Positions 738 through 57,522 are shown, counted from the stretch's first letter. The stretch: 64,000 bases of DNA from Candidatus Sulfotelmatobacter sp. (GCA_049280095.1 JBAPPL010000028.1:260362-324361); one strand, 5' to 3'. Numbers and translations are program-made. Notes: generated from the sequence alone by a model not told the origin.

Positions 738-751
738 AGACGCAAACCTGT

Positions 752-791
752 GTCATCCTGAGCGGAGCAGATGGATCGCGAAGCAAGGCAC
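752..791. repeat. REP-A element, half copy (GTCATCCTGAGCGGAGC core)
   Basis: The core at 752-768 is the reverse complement of the cores at 8326-8342 and 9173-9189. Confidence 0.7.
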
Positions 792-2451: not shown

Positions 2452-2640
2452 ATGGCCGTAACCATGACTTCGATCCGCCTGGACACTCAATTAGCCGACG
2501 AGGCCGTGAAAGTCCTCGGCGCGAAATCCCGCACCGACGCCGTTCACATCGCCCTCCGCGAGATCGTTGCGCTCAAGCGCTTCAAGGCTCTGATGAAAAA
2601 GAACTCCGGCAAGCTCAAATTCTCCGGGCTTGATGAGTGA
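2452..2640 (+). CDS. vapB: type II antitoxin, VapB family
   Basis: 62-aa protein (MAVTMTSIRLDTQLADEAVKVLGAKSRTDAVHIALREIV). Overlaps the downstream PIN-domain gene by 8 nt. Confidence 0.8.
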   Translation: MAVTMTSIRLDTQLADEAVKVLGAKSRTDAVHIALREIVALKRFKALMKKNSGKLKFSGLDE

Positions 2641-3040
2641 CCTGGTCATCTTCGATACGTCGGTTCTGGTCGACGAGGCTCGCACCGGACGTCATCGCGA
2701 GAGCATCGCATCGGTCGGCGGCTTGGTCCGAACATCATCCGTCGTTCTCGCGGAACTGATGCGTGGTGTCATCGGGCCGGCGGAACACAAGTTCCTCCGC
2801 TCTCTAGCAAGAAACTACCCGATCTTAACTCCGACGCAAAAGAATTGGCTGGAGTCGGGCGAGGTACTGGCCAACATTCGCGCTGATCGCGGCTTCGAAC
2901 CACACAAATTGCGTGACCTGCATTTCGATGTACTAATCGCTCTCACCGCCCGCTCGTATGGCGCCCGCCTCATCACAACCAATCGGACAGATTTCGAGCT
3001 GATCAATCGATATCGCGAGATCAGGTTGGAAGTGTGGTGA
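2633..3040 (+). CDS. vapC: PIN-domain ribonuclease toxin, VapC family
   Basis: Acidic PIN residues fall in the FDTSV, LAEL, DVLIA and TTNRTDF contexts. Overlaps vapB. Confidence 0.85.
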   Translation: MSDLVIFDTSVLVDEARTGRHRESIASVGGLVRTSSVVLAELMRGVIGPAEHKFLRSLARNYPILTPTQKNWLESGEVLANIRADRGFEPHKLRDLHFDVLIALTARSYGARLITTNRTDFELINRYREIRLEVW

Positions 3041-3101: not shown

Positions 3102-3575
3102 CTACGCTGCCTGCATCACTTTCTTCATCCGTTCTTTCATCTCCTGCGGGGAGACATCTTCCACATGCGTGGCCACGCTCCAGAAATGTCCGAAGGGATC
3201 TTGAATGAAGCCGGAGCGGTCGCCGTAAAACTGGTCCTGCACCGGCTTCAGGATTTTCGCGCCCTCGGCCTTCGCGCGCTCAACTACGCGATCGACGTCG
3301 GGAAGATACACGTACAGGCTTACCGGGCTTCCGCCGACCGCGGTCGCGCTGGTGTGTCCCTGCCCCATGCCGGGATTTTCGTCAGCCAGCATGATGTGCG
3401 AGTTGCCGATTTTCAACTCGGCGTGACCCACTTTGCCGTCAGGGCCATTCATGCGAACGGTTTCGACCGCGCCGAAAACCTTCTTGTAGTATTCAATCGC
3501 CTGGGCCGCGCCTTTGATGATTAGGTAGGGAGTGACGTTGTTGTAGTCCTTGGGAATGTACGAAACTTTACTCAT
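3102..3575 (-). CDS. VOC/glyoxalase-family protein (PhnB-like)
   Basis: MSKVSYIPKDYNNVTPYLIIKGAAQAIEYYKKVFGA...HAELKIGNSHIMLADE...QFYGDRSGFIQDPFGHFWSVATH matches the family pattern. Confidence 0.8.
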   Translation of the reverse strand: MSKVSYIPKDYNNVTPYLIIKGAAQAIEYYKKVFGAVETVRMNGPDGKVGHAELKIGNSHIMLADENPGMGQGHTSATAVGGSPVSLYVYLPDVDRVVERAKAEGAKILKPVQDQFYGDRSGFIQDPFGHFWSVATHVEDVSPQEMKERMKKVMQAA

Positions 3576-3714: not shown

Positions 3715-4584
3715 ATGTCCAGCACCGCCATCTCGTTCCGTCACCGGGTTACCGGAAATGCCCGCCACAATCCGCTGGCGGCGACCGGCGTGGTGCTGGT
3801 GATCATCTTCATAATCTTCGCCCTCTTCGCTCCCTGGATCGCGCCGCAGGATCCTGCCGCCATCAATCTTCCTGCGCGCCTCGACCCTCCGTCCCACGCG
3901 CACTGGTTCGGCACCGACGAGCTCGGCCGCGACATTCTCTCGCGCATCGTCTACGGCGCGCGCATCTCGATGCTGGTGGGAAGCTGCGTTGTCGTCGCGT
4001 CGCTCGCACTCGGACTCATCATCGGTTCCATCGCCGGCTACTACGGCGGAGGCATCGACCGCTTCGTCAACGTGGTCTTGATGAACGCGTTCCTCTCGTT
4101 CCCCGGAATCCTTCTCGCCATTGCGTTCGTAGCCTTCCGCGGCCCTGGCATCTTCAATCTGGTTCTCGCGCTTTCACTGGGCGGCTGGGTCGGCTACGCC
4201 CGCCTGGTGCGCGGACAAGTCCTCGCCGCGCGCGAACGCGAATTCGTCGAAGCCGCCCGGGCCCTCGGAGCGAGCGACCTCAGAATCATCGTCCGCCACA
4301 TTCTGCCGAACATTATTCAGCCTGTGATCGTGCAGGCTGCCATCGGTATGGCCGGAGCCATCCTCGCCGAAGCCACAATGAGCTTTCTAGGTCTCGGCGT
4401 TCCACCGCCCACGGCCAGTTGGGGCACGATGCTCAACGACGGCCGCGCCCACCTGTTTGACGCGCCCCATCTCGTGCTGTTTCCCGCGCTCGCCGTGATG
4501 CTGGCGGTGTTGTCGTTCAACTTTATCGGCGACGCTCTACGCGACTATCTCGACCCCCGCTCCCGCATCGAAGCCGGACTCTAA
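3715..4584 (+). CDS. ABC transporter permease, DppC/OppC type
   Basis: Contains FAPWIAPQDP and EFVEAARALGASDLRIIVRHILPN motifs. About six TM segments. Confidence 0.9.
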   Translation: MSSTAISFRHRVTGNARHNPLAATGVVLVIIFIIFALFAPWIAPQDPAAINLPARLDPPSHAHWFGTDELGRDILSRIVYGARISMLVGSCVVVASLALGLIIGSIAGYYGGGIDRFVNVVLMNAFLSFPGILLAIAFVAFRGPGIFNLVLALSLGGWVGYARLVRGQVLAAREREFVEAARALGASDLRIIVRHILPNIIQPVIVQAAIGMAGAILAEATMSFLGLGVPPPTASWGTMLNDGRAHLFDAPHLVLFPALAVMLAVLSFNFIGDALRDYLDPRSRIEAGL

Positions 4585-4620
4585 CCCCGCAACTCATTCA
4601 ATACACGCCAAATCGACTTC

Positions 4621-4649
4621 TTGACATACATTGCATATTGCAATATATA
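4621..4649 (+). promoter_or_regulatory. near-consensus sigma70-type promoter with embedded palindrome (candidate operator)
   Basis: TTGACA at 4621-4626, a 17-bp spacer, then TATATA at 4644-4649. Inverted repeat ATTGCA-TAT-TGCAAT at 4630-4644. The ATG of the XRE gene is at 4666, so the leader is very short. Confidence 0.6.
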
Positions 4650-4665
4650 TATAGCGATCTGAGAT

Positions 4666-5220
4666 ATGAAACTGGGGGAGAAAATACGTTACCTGCGTGA
4701 GGTGGAAGGTTCACTGCGCGGCCTCGATCGCCCCATCACTCAGCAGGAGATGGTCAAGGCGATCCGGCAGGAACTGCGCAAGAGCATCAGCCAGTCGTAC
4801 TTGTCGCAGATCGAGAGCGGGTCGCGGCCGCACATGACGCAGTCGTCACGTGCGTTGCTGGCCAAGTTCTTCAAGGTTCATCCCGGTTTTTTGGTGGATG
4901 ACCCTGAGGGTTATCACACGGAGCTGACTTCAGATCTACGTACGACCGAAGGCCAGCTTGATGTCTGGTTGCTGCAGGGATCGGAGCGCTTCGTCAGCGA
5001 TCCGGAAGTGAGCGAGGTGCTGATCAAGGCCGCGCGCGAGAAAGACACGAGACGCTGCCTGCTGCTGTTGGGCGCGATTCTCGACACGCCGGGCTTGGCC
5101 GAACGTCTGCTCGAAGCCCTGCGGCCGGATTTAGTAGCAAGAGGAAATCATCGCCAAGTAAGCCGGGGACAAGAAGATCACGGTCGCGCCGCGGAGGCAG
5201 AAGGGAGAAGAACCCGATGA
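4666..5220 (+). CDS. XRE-family helix-turn-helix transcriptional regulator
   Basis: HTH segment ITQQEMVKAIRQELRKSISQSYLSQIESGSRPHMTQSSRALLAKFF. Its stop overlaps the next start (ATGA). Confidence 0.8.
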   Translation: MKLGEKIRYLREVEGSLRGLDRPITQQEMVKAIRQELRKSISQSYLSQIESGSRPHMTQSSRALLAKFFKVHPGFLVDDPEGYHTELTSDLRTTEGQLDVWLLQGSERFVSDPEVSEVLIKAAREKDTRRCLLLLGAILDTPGLAERLLEALRPDLVARGNHRQVSRGQEDHGRAAEAEGRRTR

Positions 5221-5888
5221 ACTACTCCATAACCTGGGCGAACTTTTACCTCGTATGTTTCGCGGTCGGTTTCTGCCTGAGTTTTTTTTCTTTCGTGTTC
5301 GGAGGTTCGCGCACAGGCCGTCTTCATCTGCCTCACTTTCATGGGCACGTCGGCGGCGCACATCTACCTGCTGCCGGCGCGGGGCACGGTCCGGTTACGA
5401 CCGGTCACGCGCCGGTTGCAACCGATGCATCAGTTGCCGCGAGCAACGCACACGCGCAGCGAGGCGGCGGGGTTTCGCCTTTCAACTTCGTCACGCTAAC
5501 CGCGTTCCTGGCCTGGTTTGGCGGGGCTGGCTTCCTGCTCACGCGCTACTCTGGCCTTTGGGTCGGCTTCGGATTGCTGGCTTCGGCCACCAGCGGGCTG
5601 ATTGGTGGAGGCATCGTCTTCCTATTCCTGAGCAAGGTGTTGATCTCAGAGGACGAGAACATGGACCCCGCGGACTACGAAATGGTTGGAGTGCTGGGGC
5701 GAATCTGCAGTCCGATTCGCGCAGGCGGAACCGGCGAAATCATTTACACGCAGATGGGCACGCGGCGTGTCTGCGGGGCGCGCAGCGACGAGGGCAGCGT
5801 CATCGCGAAAGGGACTGAAGTCGTGGTCACGCGCTACGAAAAGGGAATTGCCTATGTGCGGCTGTGGAGCGAAATGTCCGGGGAATGA
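5217..5888 (+). CDS. NfeD-family membrane protein
   Basis: TM helices followed by a C-terminal OB-like NfeD segment (GVLGRICSPIRAGGTGEIIYTQMGTRRVCGARSDEGSVIAKGTEVVVTRYEKGIAYV). Lies upstream of a flotillin gene. Confidence 0.75.
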   Translation: MNYSITWANFYLVCFAVGFCLSFFSFVFGGSRTGRLHLPHFHGHVGGAHLPAAGAGHGPVTTGHAPVATDASVAASNAHAQRGGGVSPFNFVTLTAFLAWFGGAGFLLTRYSGLWVGFGLLASATSGLIGGGIVFLFLSKVLISEDENMDPADYEMVGVLGRICSPIRAGGTGEIIYTQMGTRRVCGARSDEGSVIAKGTEVVVTRYEKGIAYVRLWSEMSGE

Positions 5889-5938
5889 GTAAAGCGTGCT
5901 TGGCATTCAGGCTTTGCATGGTTCGGTGAGGAGACGCT

Positions 5939-6346
5939 ATGGAACGAAAATTGTTTCAAATCGCGGTAGGGCTGACGTGGCTGGCGTTGCCGTTGACTGC
6001 ACTGAACTACTGGAGGGCTTGGGATCTCCTGCCGCCGCGAATGGCGGTGCATTTCGACATCAATTGGCAGCCCAACGGCTATACGTCGCGCGAGGGATCG
6101 TTAATGCTGGCGCTGGGGACAACAGCCTTTTTGCTATTGATTTTTACGATCGCCAGCTACGCCGCGGGCAGTGCGTCGGTTTCGAGTTTGGCGAAGTGGT
6201 CGATGGTGGCCGTCTTTTATGTCGCGTTGGGTTTTGTTTTTTACGTAAATAACTGGATCGTGGATCGCAACCTGAGCGGGCAGCCGCGTAGCGAAGTAAT
6301 TGTTCCTCGTGATTTGAATGCGGGAGGTGGGTTCCCTCAGGGCTAA
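5939..6346 (+). CDS. small integral membrane protein, DUF1648-like
   Basis: Four predicted TM segments. LPPRMAVHFDINWQPNGYTSRE resembles the DUF1648/SdpI N-terminal motif. Confidence 0.5.
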   Translation: MERKLFQIAVGLTWLALPLTALNYWRAWDLLPPRMAVHFDINWQPNGYTSREGSLMLALGTTAFLLLIFTIASYAAGSASVSSLAKWSMVAVFYVALGFVFYVNNWIVDRNLSGQPRSEVIVPRDLNAGGGFPQG

Positions 6347-6388
6347 AGCCCGAAGTGATTTGGGATTTACGCGGCGCTGAAGCGCCGC
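6340..6388. repeat. REP-B GC hairpins
   Basis: GGGC-TAAA-GCCC at 6340-6351 and GCGGCGC-TGAA-GCGCCGC at 6371-6388. Same style as the hairpins at 37700-37762. Confidence 0.6.
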
Positions 6389-6489
6389 TCTTCCACGGTA
6401 CTGCAAGCGTTTTATGAGGTTCTCAACAACGTGTGTGGCTTGGTCTTGAATATTGAACTTGTGGAACTGCATTCGTAGAAGGAGGCGTT

Positions 6490-7932
6490 ATGCCGGAGAT
6501 GTCACGGATGGTCGAGATTTGGATTTTCGCCGGGCTGGGGGTGATGGTCCTTCTGTTCCTGATGAGCGGAATGGCCAGGCTATATCGCAAAGCGGGGCCG
6601 CACGAAGCACTCATCGTGTATGGCCTGGGCGGGACGCGCGTGGTGCAGGGACACGGCACGCTGGTTCTGCCCATGGTGCAAGTGTGCCGCGATCTGTCCC
6701 TGGAACTGATGTCGTTTGACGTGGCGCCGCAACAGGATCTCTACACCAAGCAAGGCGTGGCGGTGACGGTGGAAGCGGTTGCGCAAATCAAAGTGAAGTC
6801 CGACCGCGAGTCGGTGCTGACGGCTGCCGAGCAGTTTCTCACCAAGACTGATCAAGAGCGTGAGGGGCTGATCCGGCTGGTGATGGAGGGCCACCTGCGC
6901 GGCATTATCGGCCAGCTTACGGTGGAAGAAATCGTGAAGCAGCCGGAAATGGTTTCCGACCGCATGCGCTCCACATGTGCGGAGGACATGAACAAGATGG
7001 GGCTCGAGGTGATCTCGTTCACCATCAAGGAAGTTCGAGACAAGAACGAATACATCACCAACATGGGCAAGCCCGATGTAGCGCGCATCAAGCGCGACGC
7101 AGACGTGGCCACCGCGGAAGCCGACCGCGACACCGCGATCAAGCGCGCACTGGCGCAGCGGGAAGCGGCTGTAGCCAAGGCGCAGGCTGATCAGGAACGG
7201 GTGCTGGCGGAAACTTTGTCGCTGGCCAAGCAGGCCGAATCGCAGCGCGACCTCGAAGTGAAGAAGGCGCAGTTCCTGGAAGTCACAAAACGCCAGCAGG
7301 CGCAGGCTGACAAGGCTTATGACATCCAGACCAACATCATGCAGCAGCAGGTGGTGGCGGAGCAGGTGAAGGTGCAGCAGATCGAGAAAGAACAGCAGGT
7401 CAAAGTGCAGGAAGCGGAAATCAATCGCCGCGAGAAAGAACTGATCGCAACCGTACTGAAGCCGGCGGAAATCGATCGTCAACGGATTGAGACCCTGGCC
7501 GCGGCCGAGAAGCAGCGCCTGATCGCGGAAGCGGAAGGCCATGCGTCATCGATACGGGCACAAGGCGAGGCTGAGTCCGAAATCATTTTCAAAAAAGGCG
7601 AAGCTGAAGCCAAGGCCATGAACGTCAAGGCTGAGGCATATCAGGAATACAACCAGGCGGCAGTGATTGACCGGCTGTTTACGGCAATGCCGGAAGTGGT
7701 GAGGGCGCTGGCCAGTCCGCTGGCGAACGTCGACAAGATCACCATTGTCTCGACTGGAAACGGTGATGCTTCCGGGATGAACAAGATCACGGGCGATATC
7801 ACCAAGATGGCGGCGCAGGTGCCGGCGTTATTCGAGACGCTCTCCGGCATGCCGTTGTCGGAACTGTTGGGCAAGGTGCGGCAGATCGGAGACAAATCGC
7901 CGAAGCCGCCAGTGGTTGAAACGACGAAGTAG
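6490..7932 (+). CDS. flotillin-family SPFH/Band-7 protein
   Basis: N-terminal TM and SPFH core, then long Ala/Glu/Gln-rich coiled-coil repeats (AEADRDTAIKRALAQREAAVAKAQADQERVLAE...). Confidence 0.9.
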   Translation: MPEMSRMVEIWIFAGLGVMVLLFLMSGMARLYRKAGPHEALIVYGLGGTRVVQGHGTLVLPMVQVCRDLSLELMSFDVAPQQDLYTKQGVAVTVEAVAQIKVKSDRESVLTAAEQFLTKTDQEREGLIRLVMEGHLRGIIGQLTVEEIVKQPEMVSDRMRSTCAEDMNKMGLEVISFTIKEVRDKNEYITNMGKPDVARIKRDADVATAEADRDTAIKRALAQREAAVAKAQADQERVLAETLSLAKQAESQRDLEVKKAQFLEVTKRQQAQADKAYDIQTNIMQQQVVAEQVKVQQIEKEQQVKVQEAEINRREKELIATVLKPAEIDRQRIETLAAAEKQRLIAEAEGHASSIRAQGEAESEIIFKKGEAEAKAMNVKAEAYQEYNQAAVIDRLFTAMPEVVRALASPLANVDKITIVSTGNGDASGMNKITGDITKMAAQVPALFETLSGMPLSELLGKVRQIGDKSPKPPVVETTK

Positions 7933-7945
7933 GAAAGCTCACTTG

Positions 7946-7969
7946 GGGACAGCCGCCCTCGGCTGTCCC
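7946..7969. repeat. GC hairpin (REP/terminator-like) after the flotillin gene
   Basis: 10-bp perfect stem GGGACAGCCG / CGGCTGTCCC with loop CCCT. No T tract follows. Confidence 0.55.
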
Positions 7970-8005
7970 GCGAGCGAAGCGAGGCGCAGAGCTTGGAGCT
8001 GAAAT

Positions 8006-8227
8006 ATGAATCGCAAATCGAAAGGAATTGGGGCAGGCATTGCATCAGGCGCGGCGCTGGGCGCGGTCGCCGGCGTTCTGGCGGGGCATGTTGCGATCTG
8101 GCTTGGCATCGGAATCGCGATTGGAGTGGCACTCGGAGCATCGTTCCGACGGACCGAGAAGGTATGTCCCGAGTGCGCGGTGATCCATCGGAAGCATGAA
8201 GTGAGCGGCAGGCAGCTGGGAGGGTAG
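8006..8227 (+). CDS. glycine-zipper miniprotein with C-terminal CPEC motif
   Basis: 73 aa, GIGAGIASGAALGAVAGVLAGHVAIWLGIGIAIGVALGA followed by KVCPECAVIHRKHE. Same strand as flotillin and pspA. Confidence 0.5.
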   Translation: MNRKSKGIGAGIASGAALGAVAGVLAGHVAIWLGIGIAIGVALGASFRRTEKVCPECAVIHRKHEVSGRQLGG

Positions 8228-8282
8228 AGGGCGTGATTGAAATGCCCTGCGGAGCTGGTTGGTGGTTTTGAAAGACAAGGGG

Positions 8283-8343
8283 TCCTTCGACTCCGCAAGC
8301 GCTTGCGCTAGGCGCGCAACCGCTCGCTCCGCTCAGGATGACA
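8283..8343. repeat. REP-A element
   Basis: CTTCGACTCCGCA followed by GCTCCGCTCAGGATGAC (8326-8342). Same orientation as the copy at 9133-9190. Confidence 0.7.
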
Positions 8344-8366
8344 ATTTGGGAAGTGCAAGAAAGCGA

Positions 8367-8387
8367 GAAGCTAGAAGCTAGAAGCTA
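8367..8387. repeat. heptamer tandem array (GAAGCTA x3)
   Basis: Three perfect units immediately upstream of the AAGGAG Shine-Dalgarno (8391-8396) of pspA. Confidence 0.8.
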
Positions 8388-8402
8388 AAAAAGGAGTCCA
8401 CC

Positions 8403-9062
8403 ATGGCATTACTCGAGCGTGTTTCCACATTAGTCCGGGCCAACCTCAACGATCTGATCGATAAGGCTGAGGAGCCGGAGAAGATGATCAAGCAGGTGAT
8501 TCTCGACATGCAGAACCAACTGCTGCAGGTGAAGACGCAGGTGGCGATTGCCATTGCCGATCAGCATCTGCTCGAGAAAAAACAAAAAGAGAACGAAGAA
8601 AAAGTGGCGGAATGGATGCGCAAGGCCGAACTGTCAGTCGACAAGAAACAGGACGACCTGGCACGAGCCTCATTGCAGCGCGTGGAAAGCTATCGCGAGA
8701 TGAGCGAGAGCTTCTTGCAGCAGGTGACAGACCAGAAGGCGCAGGTGGAGAACCTGAAGTCGGCGCTGCGCCAGTTGGAGCAGAAGCTGAGCGAGGCGCA
8801 GGCCAAGGCCGATCTGCTGATTGCGCAACATCGCCGCGCCCGGGCCGTGGGCAAGGCCAGTGACGCGCGCCTGGCCATGGGCGACGGCTCGAAAGCCGCG
8901 GCTTTCGACCGTATGAAGCGCAAAGTGGCGCACTCTGAAGCGGTGGGGCAGGCGAAGGCCGAGATTGCCAGCGACAATATGGAAGACCGCCTCGCCGCGC
9001 TGGAAAAAGAAGATCGCATTGAGCAGTTGCTGGCGGAGCTGAAGGGGAAGCGCGGAGCTTAG
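8403..9062 (+). CDS. pspA: PspA/IM30-family protein (phage shock protein A-like)
   Basis: MALLERVSTLVRANLNDLIDKAEEPEKMIKQVILDMQNQLLQVKTQVA matches the PspA N-terminus. The rest is coiled coil. Confidence 0.9.
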   Translation: MALLERVSTLVRANLNDLIDKAEEPEKMIKQVILDMQNQLLQVKTQVAIAIADQHLLEKKQKENEEKVAEWMRKAELSVDKKQDDLARASLQRVESYREMSESFLQQVTDQKAQVENLKSALRQLEQKLSEAQAKADLLIAQHRRARAVGKASDARLAMGDGSKAAAFDRMKRKVAHSEAVGQAKAEIASDNMEDRLAALEKEDRIEQLLAELKGKRGA

Positions 9063-9104
9063 TCGGACCGATGCGTTGGCGCCCGCGATTCGGTTGAGGG
9101 ACTA

Positions 9105-9190
9105 GGGATCCCCTCGGCACGCTCGGGGCAGGCTCTTCGACTCCGCATCCATTTCGCTTTCGCAAAGTGGATGCTCCGCTCAGGATGACA
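9105..9190. repeat. REP-A element
   Basis: CTCTTCGACTCCGCA ... GCTCCGCTCAGGATGAC (9173-9189). Confidence 0.7.
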
Positions 9191-9311
9191 CTAACCTTAG
9201 GATGCGCCCGGGGAATCGTCACCCCGGCTTACATCCATTGACCGGTCGGGCCGCATCTCTGTAATCTTGGTTGTGCAATTTCGGATGGGATTTCCGGTTC
9301 GAGGATCTTTC

Positions 9312-9833
9312 ATGAAGCAAGGTGCAATTCTCCTGCTGTTGCTGATGACGACGCTCATGCTGGGCGGCTGTGGCAGCACTCCCACGTCGGTTCAGACGGG
9401 GGCGGGTGGAATCTGGCTGGCGGAGTTGACCGGAGGCAGCGGCCAAGCGTCCGGGTTGAGCTTTATCACGGACTTCACGCTGAACGGCAATGCCACCCTG
9501 AACATTTTGAGCTTTCAATTCCTCAACTATAACCCCAACAACAGCGCCAACTGTTTCTCCTCCATCAACGGGCCAAATGTGACCGGATCAATCCCCTTGA
9601 CGCTTCAGTCGAACGACACCGTGACCGGCACCATCACCTACGTCGTGCAGTCGGGAGGCAATGCCCTTACCCTTAACGGAATCGTGAACGGAACGGCGAG
9701 AGAGAACGGGAGCGGGACGAATGCTACCTATACGCTGACCAGCGCCACGATCACCGGCACTTGGACTCTAACTGGTAGCTCCGGGTGCACCGTGAGCGGC
9801 GACACGTTTTTCACCATGACCCAGTCGTCCTGA
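9312..9833 (+). CDS. hypothetical lipoprotein
   Basis: MKQGAILLLLLMTTLMLGGCGS is a signal peptide with a lipobox. GAGGA Shine-Dalgarno before ATG 9312. Thr/Gly/Asn-rich mature part. Confidence 0.6.
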   Translation: MKQGAILLLLLMTTLMLGGCGSTPTSVQTGAGGIWLAELTGGSGQASGLSFITDFTLNGNATLNILSFQFLNYNPNNSANCFSSINGPNVTGSIPLTLQSNDTVTGTITYVVQSGGNALTLNGIVNGTARENGSGTNATYTLTSATITGTWTLTGSSGCTVSGDTFFTMTQSS

Positions 9834-19640: not shown

Positions 19641-19698
19641 GCTCCTAGCTTCTAGCTGCTGGCTACTAGCTAAAAGCTAGGGGCTAGAAGCTAGGAGC
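19641..19698. repeat. heptamer (nnAGCTn) array forming a 16-bp inverted repeat
   Basis: GCTCCTAGCTTCTAGC (19641-19656) is the exact reverse complement of GCTAGAAGCTAGGAGC (19683-19698). There is an inner CTAGC/GCTAG stem. The element spans the trmH-like stop and the rarA Shine-Dalgarno. Confidence 0.85.
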
Positions 19699-57413: not shown

Positions 57414-57512
57414 GAATTGCTGATTGCTAATTGTTGATTGCTGATTGCAACCCAGAGTCGATCAGCTTTTCAATCATCAATCATCAATCATCAATCATCA
57501 ATCATCAATCAT
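57414..57512. repeat. two heptamer arrays, (TGATTGC)x5 and (CAATCAT)x6, in near-inverted orientation
   Basis: 57414-57448 reads gaattgc tgattgc taattgt tgattgc tgattgc. 57471-57512 holds six perfect caatcat units. The arrays are reverse complements except for one position per unit. Confidence 0.9.
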
Positions 57513-57522
57513 CAATAACTTC

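Follow-up and report, generated by a model that had tools for sequence, protein, structure and literature searches.

A gene for the membrane-repair protein PspA that lies in line with genes for NfeD and a flotillin, all behind one regulator gene, raises the question of whether these genes work as a single regulated unit. We studied this in a stretch of 64,000 nucleotides (nt) from Candidatus Sulfotelmatobacter sp. (GCA_049280095.1 JBAPPL010000028.1:260362-324361), hereafter the window, in which six genes of this kind follow each other on the + strand between positions 4666 and 9062. PspA/IM30 is a bacterial ESCRT-III-like protein that remodels and repairs membranes. We read the locus as the Terriglobales (Acidobacteriota) version of the phage-shock-protein/flotillin membrane-stress cluster; the simplest account of its sequence would be a membrane-stress operon that regulates itself and whose transcript is attenuated or stabilised by an internal hairpin, and we give this explanation as a whole a probability of about 0.6. 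The cluster itself is a real, strongly conserved and well-documented example, not a discovery. Its predicted elements, of which the gene of the DUF1648 protein is optional, are in this order (lengths of products in amino acids, aa):

4621-4662 (+), sigma-70-type promoter with an overlapping predicted operator, assigned from sequence and conservation
4666-5220 (+), EspR-like Cro/C1 (XRE-type) helix-turn-helix (HTH) regulator, 184 aa, by profile match to EspR
5217-5888 (+), short NfeD-like protein of the YuaF/YqiJ type, 223 aa, by profile and three predicted transmembrane (TM) segments
5939-6346 (+), short-form DUF1648 membrane protein, 135 aa (PF07853 at residues 21-58, 32.0 bits against a threshold of 28.7)
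6490-7932 (+), FloT-type flotillin, 480 aa, with Band_7 and Flot domains above threshold
7946-7969 (+), G+C-rich hairpin with a 10-base-pair (bp) stem, starting 14 nt after the floT stop
8006-8227 (+), glycine-zipper membrane miniprotein, 73 aa (PF26273 on its homologues)
8403-9062 (+), PspA/IM30 protein, 219 aa (PF04012, 130.4 bits against a threshold of 33.9, E=9.6e-38)

The six open reading frames (ORFs) lie exactly where an initial annotation of the window had placed them, as does the ATGA overlap between the regulator stop and the nfeD start (5217-5220), a 4-nt overlap that suggests translational coupling. The remaining four junctions are gaps of 50, 143, 73 and 175 nt. Five ORFs overlap the cluster on the opposite strand (6580-7542, 8488-9222, 6134-6472, 7939-8298 and 7641-8141); none of the five matched a Pfam family, and they resemble the antisense ORFs that are common in G+C-rich DNA. 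The family labels were supported as well: those of PspA, the flotillin and the DUF1648 protein exceed Pfam thresholds, and those of NfeD and the HTH protein, below threshold as single sequences, are supported by profiles of their orthologues.

The PspA match spans profile positions 2-218 of 220 and is thus full-length, and a score of 130 bits with TIGR02977, below the equivalog cut-off, marks a member of the family and not an equivalog of the E. coli type. The flotillin combines an N-terminal hydrophobic anchor (read from the translation as VEIWIFAGLGVMVLLFLMSGMA, residues 8-29), an SPFH/Band_7 domain (107.2 bits, threshold 23.6, E=1.3e-30), a coiled coil and a Flot domain (34.6 bits, threshold 27, E=2.3e-8). 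With 343.8 bits against an NCBIfam equivalog cut-off of 700, it is FloT-like without being an equivalog of B. subtilis FloT. The NfeD protein has three predicted TM segments, visible as hydrophobic segments in the alignment of its orthologues, a variable His-rich linker and an OB-like domain at its C-terminus. Taken alone, the sequence reaches 14.4 bits with PF01957 (threshold 29.1, E=0.045), a family that only 3 of 22 orthologues match at E<=0.1. The profile of these 22 orthologues aligns with the full length of the solved OB domain of B. subtilis YuaF (2K14; E=0.0012, residues 130-201), and the orthologues on two further contigs (L081 and L082) carry a precomputed PF25842 NfeD_TM match. The His-rich linker joins the first two TM segments (window 5300-5470, residues ~30-85) and includes a conserved RLHLPHFHGH, followed by a variable stretch rich in H, G, A and P whose length differs among species; it may be a metal-binding or sensing loop.

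The regulator sequence alone scores 16.8 bits with HTH_3 (threshold 23, E=0.007). The profile of 23 orthologues matches the EspR chains 3QWG, 3QF3, 3R1F and 4NDW (E ~1e-5, residues 23-80), and close homologues are named XRE-family HTH regulators in public sources. Its helical domain on the C-terminal side is conserved and its tail varies, residues 1-155 being highly conserved. The family is a small one: at E<=1e-3 it comprises 468 of 1.84e9 representative clusters. In two loci (L025 and L041) the regulator ORFs, of 386-397 aa, extend into nfeD. An anti-phage island headed by an XRE regulator was rejected as an identity for the locus: PADLOC matched no system, and its sole hit was a weak match to a generic HTH (E=0.004).

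To see how far the arrangement extends, we scanned one genome per species and found a related flotillin in at least 582 genomes. We compared the best 80 of these, all species-representative Terriglobales with flotillins 87-97% identical to that of the window; close homologues bear the names Candidatus Sulfotelmatobacter, Terriglobales or Acidobacteriaceae. Our synteny data cover this one order, and the distribution of the cluster across the phylum is taken from the literature. Searches of the 80 loci with the window proteins (tblastn) recovered the regulator in 79, NfeD in 79 and PspA in all 80, with order and strand unchanged throughout; the single locus without regulator and NfeD is a contig end. 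NfeD is directly 5' of floT, or has just the DUF1648 gene in between, in 79 of the 80, and the ATGA overlap is kept in 62 of 77. The core order of regulator, NfeD, flotillin and PspA is therefore conserved wherever the contig permits, while the flanks vary. The initial annotation had proposed that an NfeD-flotillin module is joined to PspA behind one HTH regulator, and had named a lack of synteny beyond NfeD-flotillin in relatives as evidence to the contrary; the regulator and PspA are kept as well, and the grouping of these genes by function is well supported.

The other four junctions have median gaps of 36, 30, 97 and 36 nt in the relatives. The 143-nt gap of the window holds extra sequence, including an element at 6374-6396 that is single-copy in the window, and this extra sequence is missing from the relatives with 30-nt gaps. 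The gap between the miniprotein gene and pspA, of 175 nt in the window against a median of 36 nt in relatives, is unusually long because of an insertion that resembles repetitive extragenic palindromic (REP) elements.

Conservation of this kind could simply be gene order inherited within one bacterial order, without functional coupling. The 80 loci do come from close relatives, as the identity of their flotillins attests, and the flanking synteny is partly retained: an OppC-like permease gene lies upstream in 56 of the 68 loci with enough sequence, and a downstream lipoprotein or LpxD marker was found in 41 of 65. Yet these flanks turn over, with insertions that often set OppC 0.6-3.8 kb off from the regulator and with both markers missing in 7 of 61 loci, whereas the core is never broken. 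Independent associations of PspA with Band7/flotillin proteins occur in other phyla (PMC9239133, PMC11237479), and in B. subtilis PspA and an SPFH protein interact physically (PMC8581546). We therefore regard adjacency without coupling as highly improbable.

The two membrane proteins of lesser size differ in how regularly they accompany this core. The miniprotein was found by tblastn in 64 of the 80 loci, and 11 further loci have a small glycine-zipper ORF in the gap between floT and pspA, most of which lack the CxxC...HxxH tail. With these, ~75 of 80 loci have a glycine-zipper miniprotein, which is nearly a core component. The slot of the DUF1648 gene is empty in ~17 relatives, holds a short form (~125-170 aa) in ~37 and a long form (~295-300 aa) in ~22. 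The initial annotation counted this gene as a member of the cluster; it is present here, above threshold, but it is an accessory, optional component. Substitutions in it fall by codon position as in real coding genes (third > first > second).

The control of the cluster can be approached from the region 5' of the regulator gene, which contains the following elements:

4621-4626 (+), -35 box TTGACA, followed by a 17-nt spacer
4644-4649 (+), -10 box TATATA, near-consensus and inside the palindrome
4630-4644 (+), perfect 15-bp palindrome ATTGCATATTGCAAT, with one occurrence in the 64-kb window
4634-4661 (+), imperfect 28-bp palindrome with its centre on the -10 box

The 28-bp palindrome is accompanied by a third ATYGCRAT-like box, and the three such boxes cover the region from -35 to +1. 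The start codon of the regulator lies ~10 nt past the expected transcription start, behind a leader without a Shine-Dalgarno (SD) sequence. Across this 42-bp region, the consensus TTGACAtanATcgCAnATTGCAATATAAaTATngCGATtTGa is recognisable 5' of the regulator in 78 of 79 related loci, and the operator recurs neither in the 64-kb window nor within ~7 kb in the 80 loci. Metagenome contigs scanned with the 22-nt core of the motif gave at least 120 matches. Among the 120 matches listed, 117 have the regulator gene at most 120 nt downstream, and the other three are a contig end, an offset copy before the regulator gene and an AT-rich chance match (L143), the one match that does not adjoin the regulator. 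On the contigs with enough room, again among the matches listed, NfeD (74 of 74), Flot (34 of 34) and PspA (25 of 25) follow downstream. Among these 120 matches, then, the motif is almost confined to the upstream region of this regulator gene. A generic scan of the window for consensus promoters and terminators missed the real promoter, whose -10 box ends in A, and found terminators at chance level only, and a permissive Rfam search of 4300-9700 returned nothing meaningful. Because the operator is conserved, its motif nearly exclusive and the regulator family small, the protein appears to be a dedicated local regulator and is probably autoregulatory.

The same boxes could instead be used to stimulate transcription under stress, the HTH protein being an activator or a nucleoid-associated protein of the EspR/ClgR kind. 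EspR is the nearest solved relative, the clgR-pspA operon of M. tuberculosis has clgR as its first gene (PMC11237479), and three ATYGCRAT-like boxes spread from -35 to +1 do not make one simple operator. Against this, a promoter with a perfect -35 box, a 17-nt spacer and a near-consensus -10 box should need no activator, a palindrome centred on the -10 box has the classical position for steric repression, and the ClgR-type partners of PspA are read as repressors by Ravi et al. (PMC11237479). On balance, activation seems unlikely to us. The resemblance to ClgR, to which the initial annotation had pointed, holds at the level of function only: EspR is the nearest solved relative, and no chain named ClgR occurs among the PDB profile matches at E<=10. 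The latter is a weak negative because the presence of a ClgR structure in the PDB is our assumption.

The second possible control point lies between floT and the miniprotein gene. The gap at 7933-8005 folds at -35.4 kcal/mol (z=-3.27), a value reached by 0 of 200 shuffled sequences. Of the 80 loci, 74 have a hairpin of at most -15 kcal/mol just 3' of floT (median -25.8 kcal/mol), and the other internal junctions mostly have none. The stems vary by lineage and stay paired, both sides having changed in 5 of 8 consensus pairs, and in the 1.12 Mb that the related loci cover, hairpins of this type hardly occur anywhere else. The initial annotation had described the gaps as filled with hairpin/REP elements. 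This is partly right: the CCGCTCAGGATGAC element alone is repeated in the window, with three copies, and the element at 6374-6396 and the hairpin at 7946-7969 are single-copy there; the latter, position-specific in the relatives, was ruled out as a dispersed REP. The same hairpin had been named there as a possible terminator that would separate the transcripts, and since it is conserved, an uninterrupted transcript is not assured. It may act as an internal attenuator or terminator, or may stabilise the mRNA.

If it terminates fully, the cluster would consist of two transcription units: regulator, nfeD, (DUF1648) and floT would end at the hairpin, the miniprotein gene and pspA would have their own unrecognised promoter, for example of the extracytoplasmic function (ECF) sigma type, and the HTH protein would control the scaffold genes only. 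The hairpin after floT is indeed the stronger one, the junction 3' of pspA having a hairpin of at most -15 kcal/mol within 150 nt in 61 of 79 loci with a median of -17.3 kcal/mol; it covaries, and it is sometimes followed by a T-run. Both pspA (with the strong, conserved AAAGGAGTCCAYCATG) and floT have strong SD sequences of their own, and in B. subtilis pspA is transcribed from a sigma-W promoter, which is of the ECF type (PMC8581546). However, in the 30 kb of spacers between floT and pspA from 79 loci there is no sigma-70-like site (>=10/12) and no conserved sigma-54-like site, and the only conserved features before pspA are its SD and arrays of period 7. The distance from the hairpin to the miniprotein start is also often only ~40-50 nt, and the median gap from the miniprotein gene to pspA is 36 nt. 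Finally, pspA is never parted from floT in the 80 genomes and, among the matches listed, in 25 metagenome contigs. Two units thus seem a somewhat unlikely arrangement. No conserved sigma-70 or sigma-54 promoter was found before floT. A block ACTGCATTCGTA(n)AGGAGGCGTTATG directly 5' of the floT start (window 6459-6489) is conserved in most loci; it is longer than an SD sequence requires and may be a translational control element.

The autoregulated operon that we favour would work as follows. A dimer of the regulator would bind the palindrome and repress its own promoter, and membrane or envelope stress would lift this repression. Transcription would then run from the regulator gene through floT, with a fraction passing the hairpin into the miniprotein gene and pspA, so that the hairpin would set the ratio of upstream to downstream products, either by partial termination or by protecting the 3' end of the upstream mRNA. 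NfeD and FloT would form a membrane scaffold, as YuaF and FloT do in B. subtilis. The scaffold and the glycine-zipper protein might then localise or organise PspA polymers at the damaged membrane, a step modelled on B. subtilis, where the SPFH protein YdjI and the membrane proteins YdjG and YdjH recruit PspA.

Several points weigh against this scheme. Co-transcription across the floT hairpin is something we infer from sequence, and in six loci (L003, L009, L015, L036, L061 and L076) the hairpin has a T-run like that of a canonical intrinsic terminator. The gaps of 143 and 175 nt in the window are long enough for unrecognised promoters. The interactions among NfeD, FloT, the miniprotein and PspA are extrapolated from B. 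subtilis. Repression was preferred to activation solely from the position of the operator, EspR and ClgR are not known to be simple autorepressors, and the AlphaFold2 model of the regulator, built with 24 close homologues, has a predicted local distance difference test (pLDDT) score of 49.9 and is too poor to use in a fold search. Part of the conservation is merely vertical inheritance, since all the synteny comes from one order and the flotillins are so similar. Lastly, the 175-nt gap exceeds the operon rule of 150 bp of Popp et al. 2022 (PMC9239133). By a neighbourhood criterion of that type, all four components are co-directional and three of the four gaps are at most 150 bp, the fourth being the one with the REP-like insertion.

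A more elaborate scheme would place the regulator itself under control of the scaffold, sequestered or released by NfeD, flotillin or PspA in the way that PspF is by PspA, which would make the operon a flotillin-gated switch. The miniprotein would be an adaptor or sensor of PspA at the membrane, and the hairpin would tune the stoichiometry of scaffold to PspA. This idea is prompted by the tight coupling of regulator and NfeD and by the near-exclusive operator motif, and we find it quite doubtful. If it were true, the miniprotein would be the functional counterpart of PspB/C, LiaI or YdjG.

The miniprotein ends in a C-x2-C-x3-H-x2-H motif (CPECAVIHRKH). PF26273 (Gly_zipper) is precomputed on all 120 homologues listed, one of which is 99% identical to the protein of the window. 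Across 41 sequences, G27, H28, W32, C54, C57, H61 and H64 are invariant, and substitutions are biased to third positions, revealing purifying selection. The AlphaFold2 model (pLDDT 70.8) has helices at 8-52 and 55-70 and is compatible with either one TM helix or a hairpin of two. Two loci (L056:8455-8981 and L079:6498-6940) have two different glycine-zipper ORFs one after the other in the interval from floT to pspA, so that the miniprotein seems to undergo duplication and turnover.

The long form of the DUF1648 protein (~297 aa) is found at L005:6083-6976, L036:5987-6889, L079:4062-4943 and in ~19 other loci, and long-form orthologues score 27.6-41.6 bits. It adds TM segments and a conserved C-terminal soluble domain (...GFHYYFTRHGVEIRTLGFRLKSIP...GYGIRG...AYVWG...GEVFLGH...) that matches no Pfam family in the library searched, and the 135-aa protein of the window looks like a truncated relative. 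At L039:6548-8422 and L078:993-2912 the DUF1648 ORF is in frame with the flotillin ORF, giving a product of 624-639 aa, and one gene caller also reports such a product (protein P0007, 624 aa); this could be either a real fusion or a missed stop.

The spacers around pspA contain further repeated elements, of which one copy lies elsewhere in the window:

739-765 (-), third copy of the REP-like element, with the CCGCTCAGGATGAC core
8281-8343 (+), REP-like element in the spacer between the miniprotein gene and pspA, with the CCGCTCAGGATGAC core
8361-8387 (+), heptamer array, AAGCTAG x3.9, from Tandem Repeats Finder, directly 5' of the pspA ribosome-binding site
9131-9190 (+), REP-like element or hairpin 3' of pspA, second + strand copy of CCGCTCAGGATGAC, where the cluster probably ends

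The copies of the CCGCTCAGGATGAC core are located at 752 (-), 8329 (+) and 9176 (+), three where 0.08 are expected in the window, and the element has 11 occurrences in the 80 related loci. Two copies flank pspA and enlarge the local spacers. An array of period 7 precedes pspA in most related loci, with units and copy numbers (up to ~9) that differ, and in some loci also precedes floT. The window has such 7-nt arrays, of 3-7 copies, at 1297-1328, 8361-8387, 19641-19698, 57416-57448 and 57470-57516, with the units ACTGAGA, AAGCTAG, GCTACTA/AGCTAGG, ATTGCTG and TCAATCA. They sit in the spacers of co-directional ORFs, just 5' of the next start. Many of the units contain a stop codon, which places stops in all three frames; GCCAGCA and CGACCAA do not. 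We take these arrays to resemble the short tandemly repeated repetitive (STRR) heptamers of cyanobacteria.

Upstream of the cluster, the genes of an OppB-like (1403-2233) and an OppC-like (3715-4584) ABC permease are parted by two insertions. One, at 2452-3040 (+), encodes a putative VapBC-type toxin-antitoxin pair of 62 and 136 aa that overlap by 11 nt, and the other, at 3102-3575 (-), a putative glyoxalase-like ORF of 157 aa. The antitoxin-like ORF occurs in only 12 and the toxin-like ORF in only 13 of the 80 related loci, which suggests that a mobile insertion bearing the pair split a transporter operon.

The components of the cluster have been described together before. In Acidobacteriota, Popp et al. 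2022 (mSystems) found Band_7 and Flot proteins beside 11 of 19 PspAs, and reported that NfeD also occurs in the neighbourhood and that the PspA operons contain HTH regulators (PMC9239133). The suggestion in the initial annotation that the combination was undescribed as a unit is for this reason unsupported: the published network comes from the same phylum and has the same core genes. It is a consensus at the level of domains, to which the cluster of the window adds a promoter/operator and the hairpin after floT. We found no mention of DUF1648 or the glycine-zipper miniprotein in that study (PMC9239133). In the literature on PspA operons that we examined, nothing linked DUF1648 to these operons, and we saw no account of the miniprotein, of the operator or of the hairpin after floT, though no search was aimed at these three. 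Ravi et al. 2024 also report PspA operons with TM+band-7+flotillin and YqiJ/YuaF-type proteins (PMC11237479). The trio of PspA, a membrane-anchored flotillin and a YuaF/YqiJ-type protein is common to these and the window, whereas the CesT/Tir-PspA dyad on which those operons centre, and the AAA+ ATPase or phospholipase D that they often include, were not seen in the window cluster.

Three systems from other bacteria each share part of this composition. In B. subtilis pspA-ydjGHI (samGHI), an SPFH protein and its membrane partners are needed to recruit PspA (PMC8581546; bioRxiv 10.64898/2026.02.06.704340). As in the window, PspA is co-encoded with an SPFH protein and small membrane proteins, and YdjG, described as a zinc-ribbon with a TM segment, may parallel the CxxC...HxxH tail of the miniprotein. 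However, pspA comes first in that operon, reversing the order; YdjI is soluble, whereas the flotillin of the window is itself anchored in the membrane and carries a Flot domain; in place of NfeD there is YdjH, which has a TPM domain (Ravi et al.); and control is by sigma-W instead of a local HTH regulator. The yuaF-floT-yuaI genes of B. subtilis and yqiJK of E. coli have a short three-TM NfeD with an OB domain directly 5' of the flotillin, a likeness to the window, where the NfeD profile matches the YuaF OB domain, but lack pspA and an HTH regulator, and clusters of the window type often have DUF1648 between nfeD and floT. In M. tuberculosis clgR-pspA-rv2743c-rv2742c (clgR-pspAMN), a Cro-like HTH protein, read by Ravi et al. 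as a PspA-linked repressor (PMC11237479), heads an operon with pspA and a membrane protein, as in the window. The regulator of the window is not detectably ClgR-like, the mycobacterial operon has neither flotillin nor NfeD, and homologues of PspM and PspN were not identified in the window.

In soil, few bacteria are more abundant than Acidobacteria, which are genetically hard to study. The cluster occurs in hundreds of their species, judging from the species-representative genomes that encode its flotillin, and is probably their main PspA-based system of membrane maintenance. The current picture of Psp systems is unchanged by our findings. What is new here is a defined promoter/operator, a conserved internal hairpin and the distinction between a nearly core miniprotein and an optional DUF1648 protein. 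These pieces are incremental and testable, and they offer handles on the cooperation between flotillin scaffolds and ESCRT-III-like PspA that is actively studied in Bacillus.

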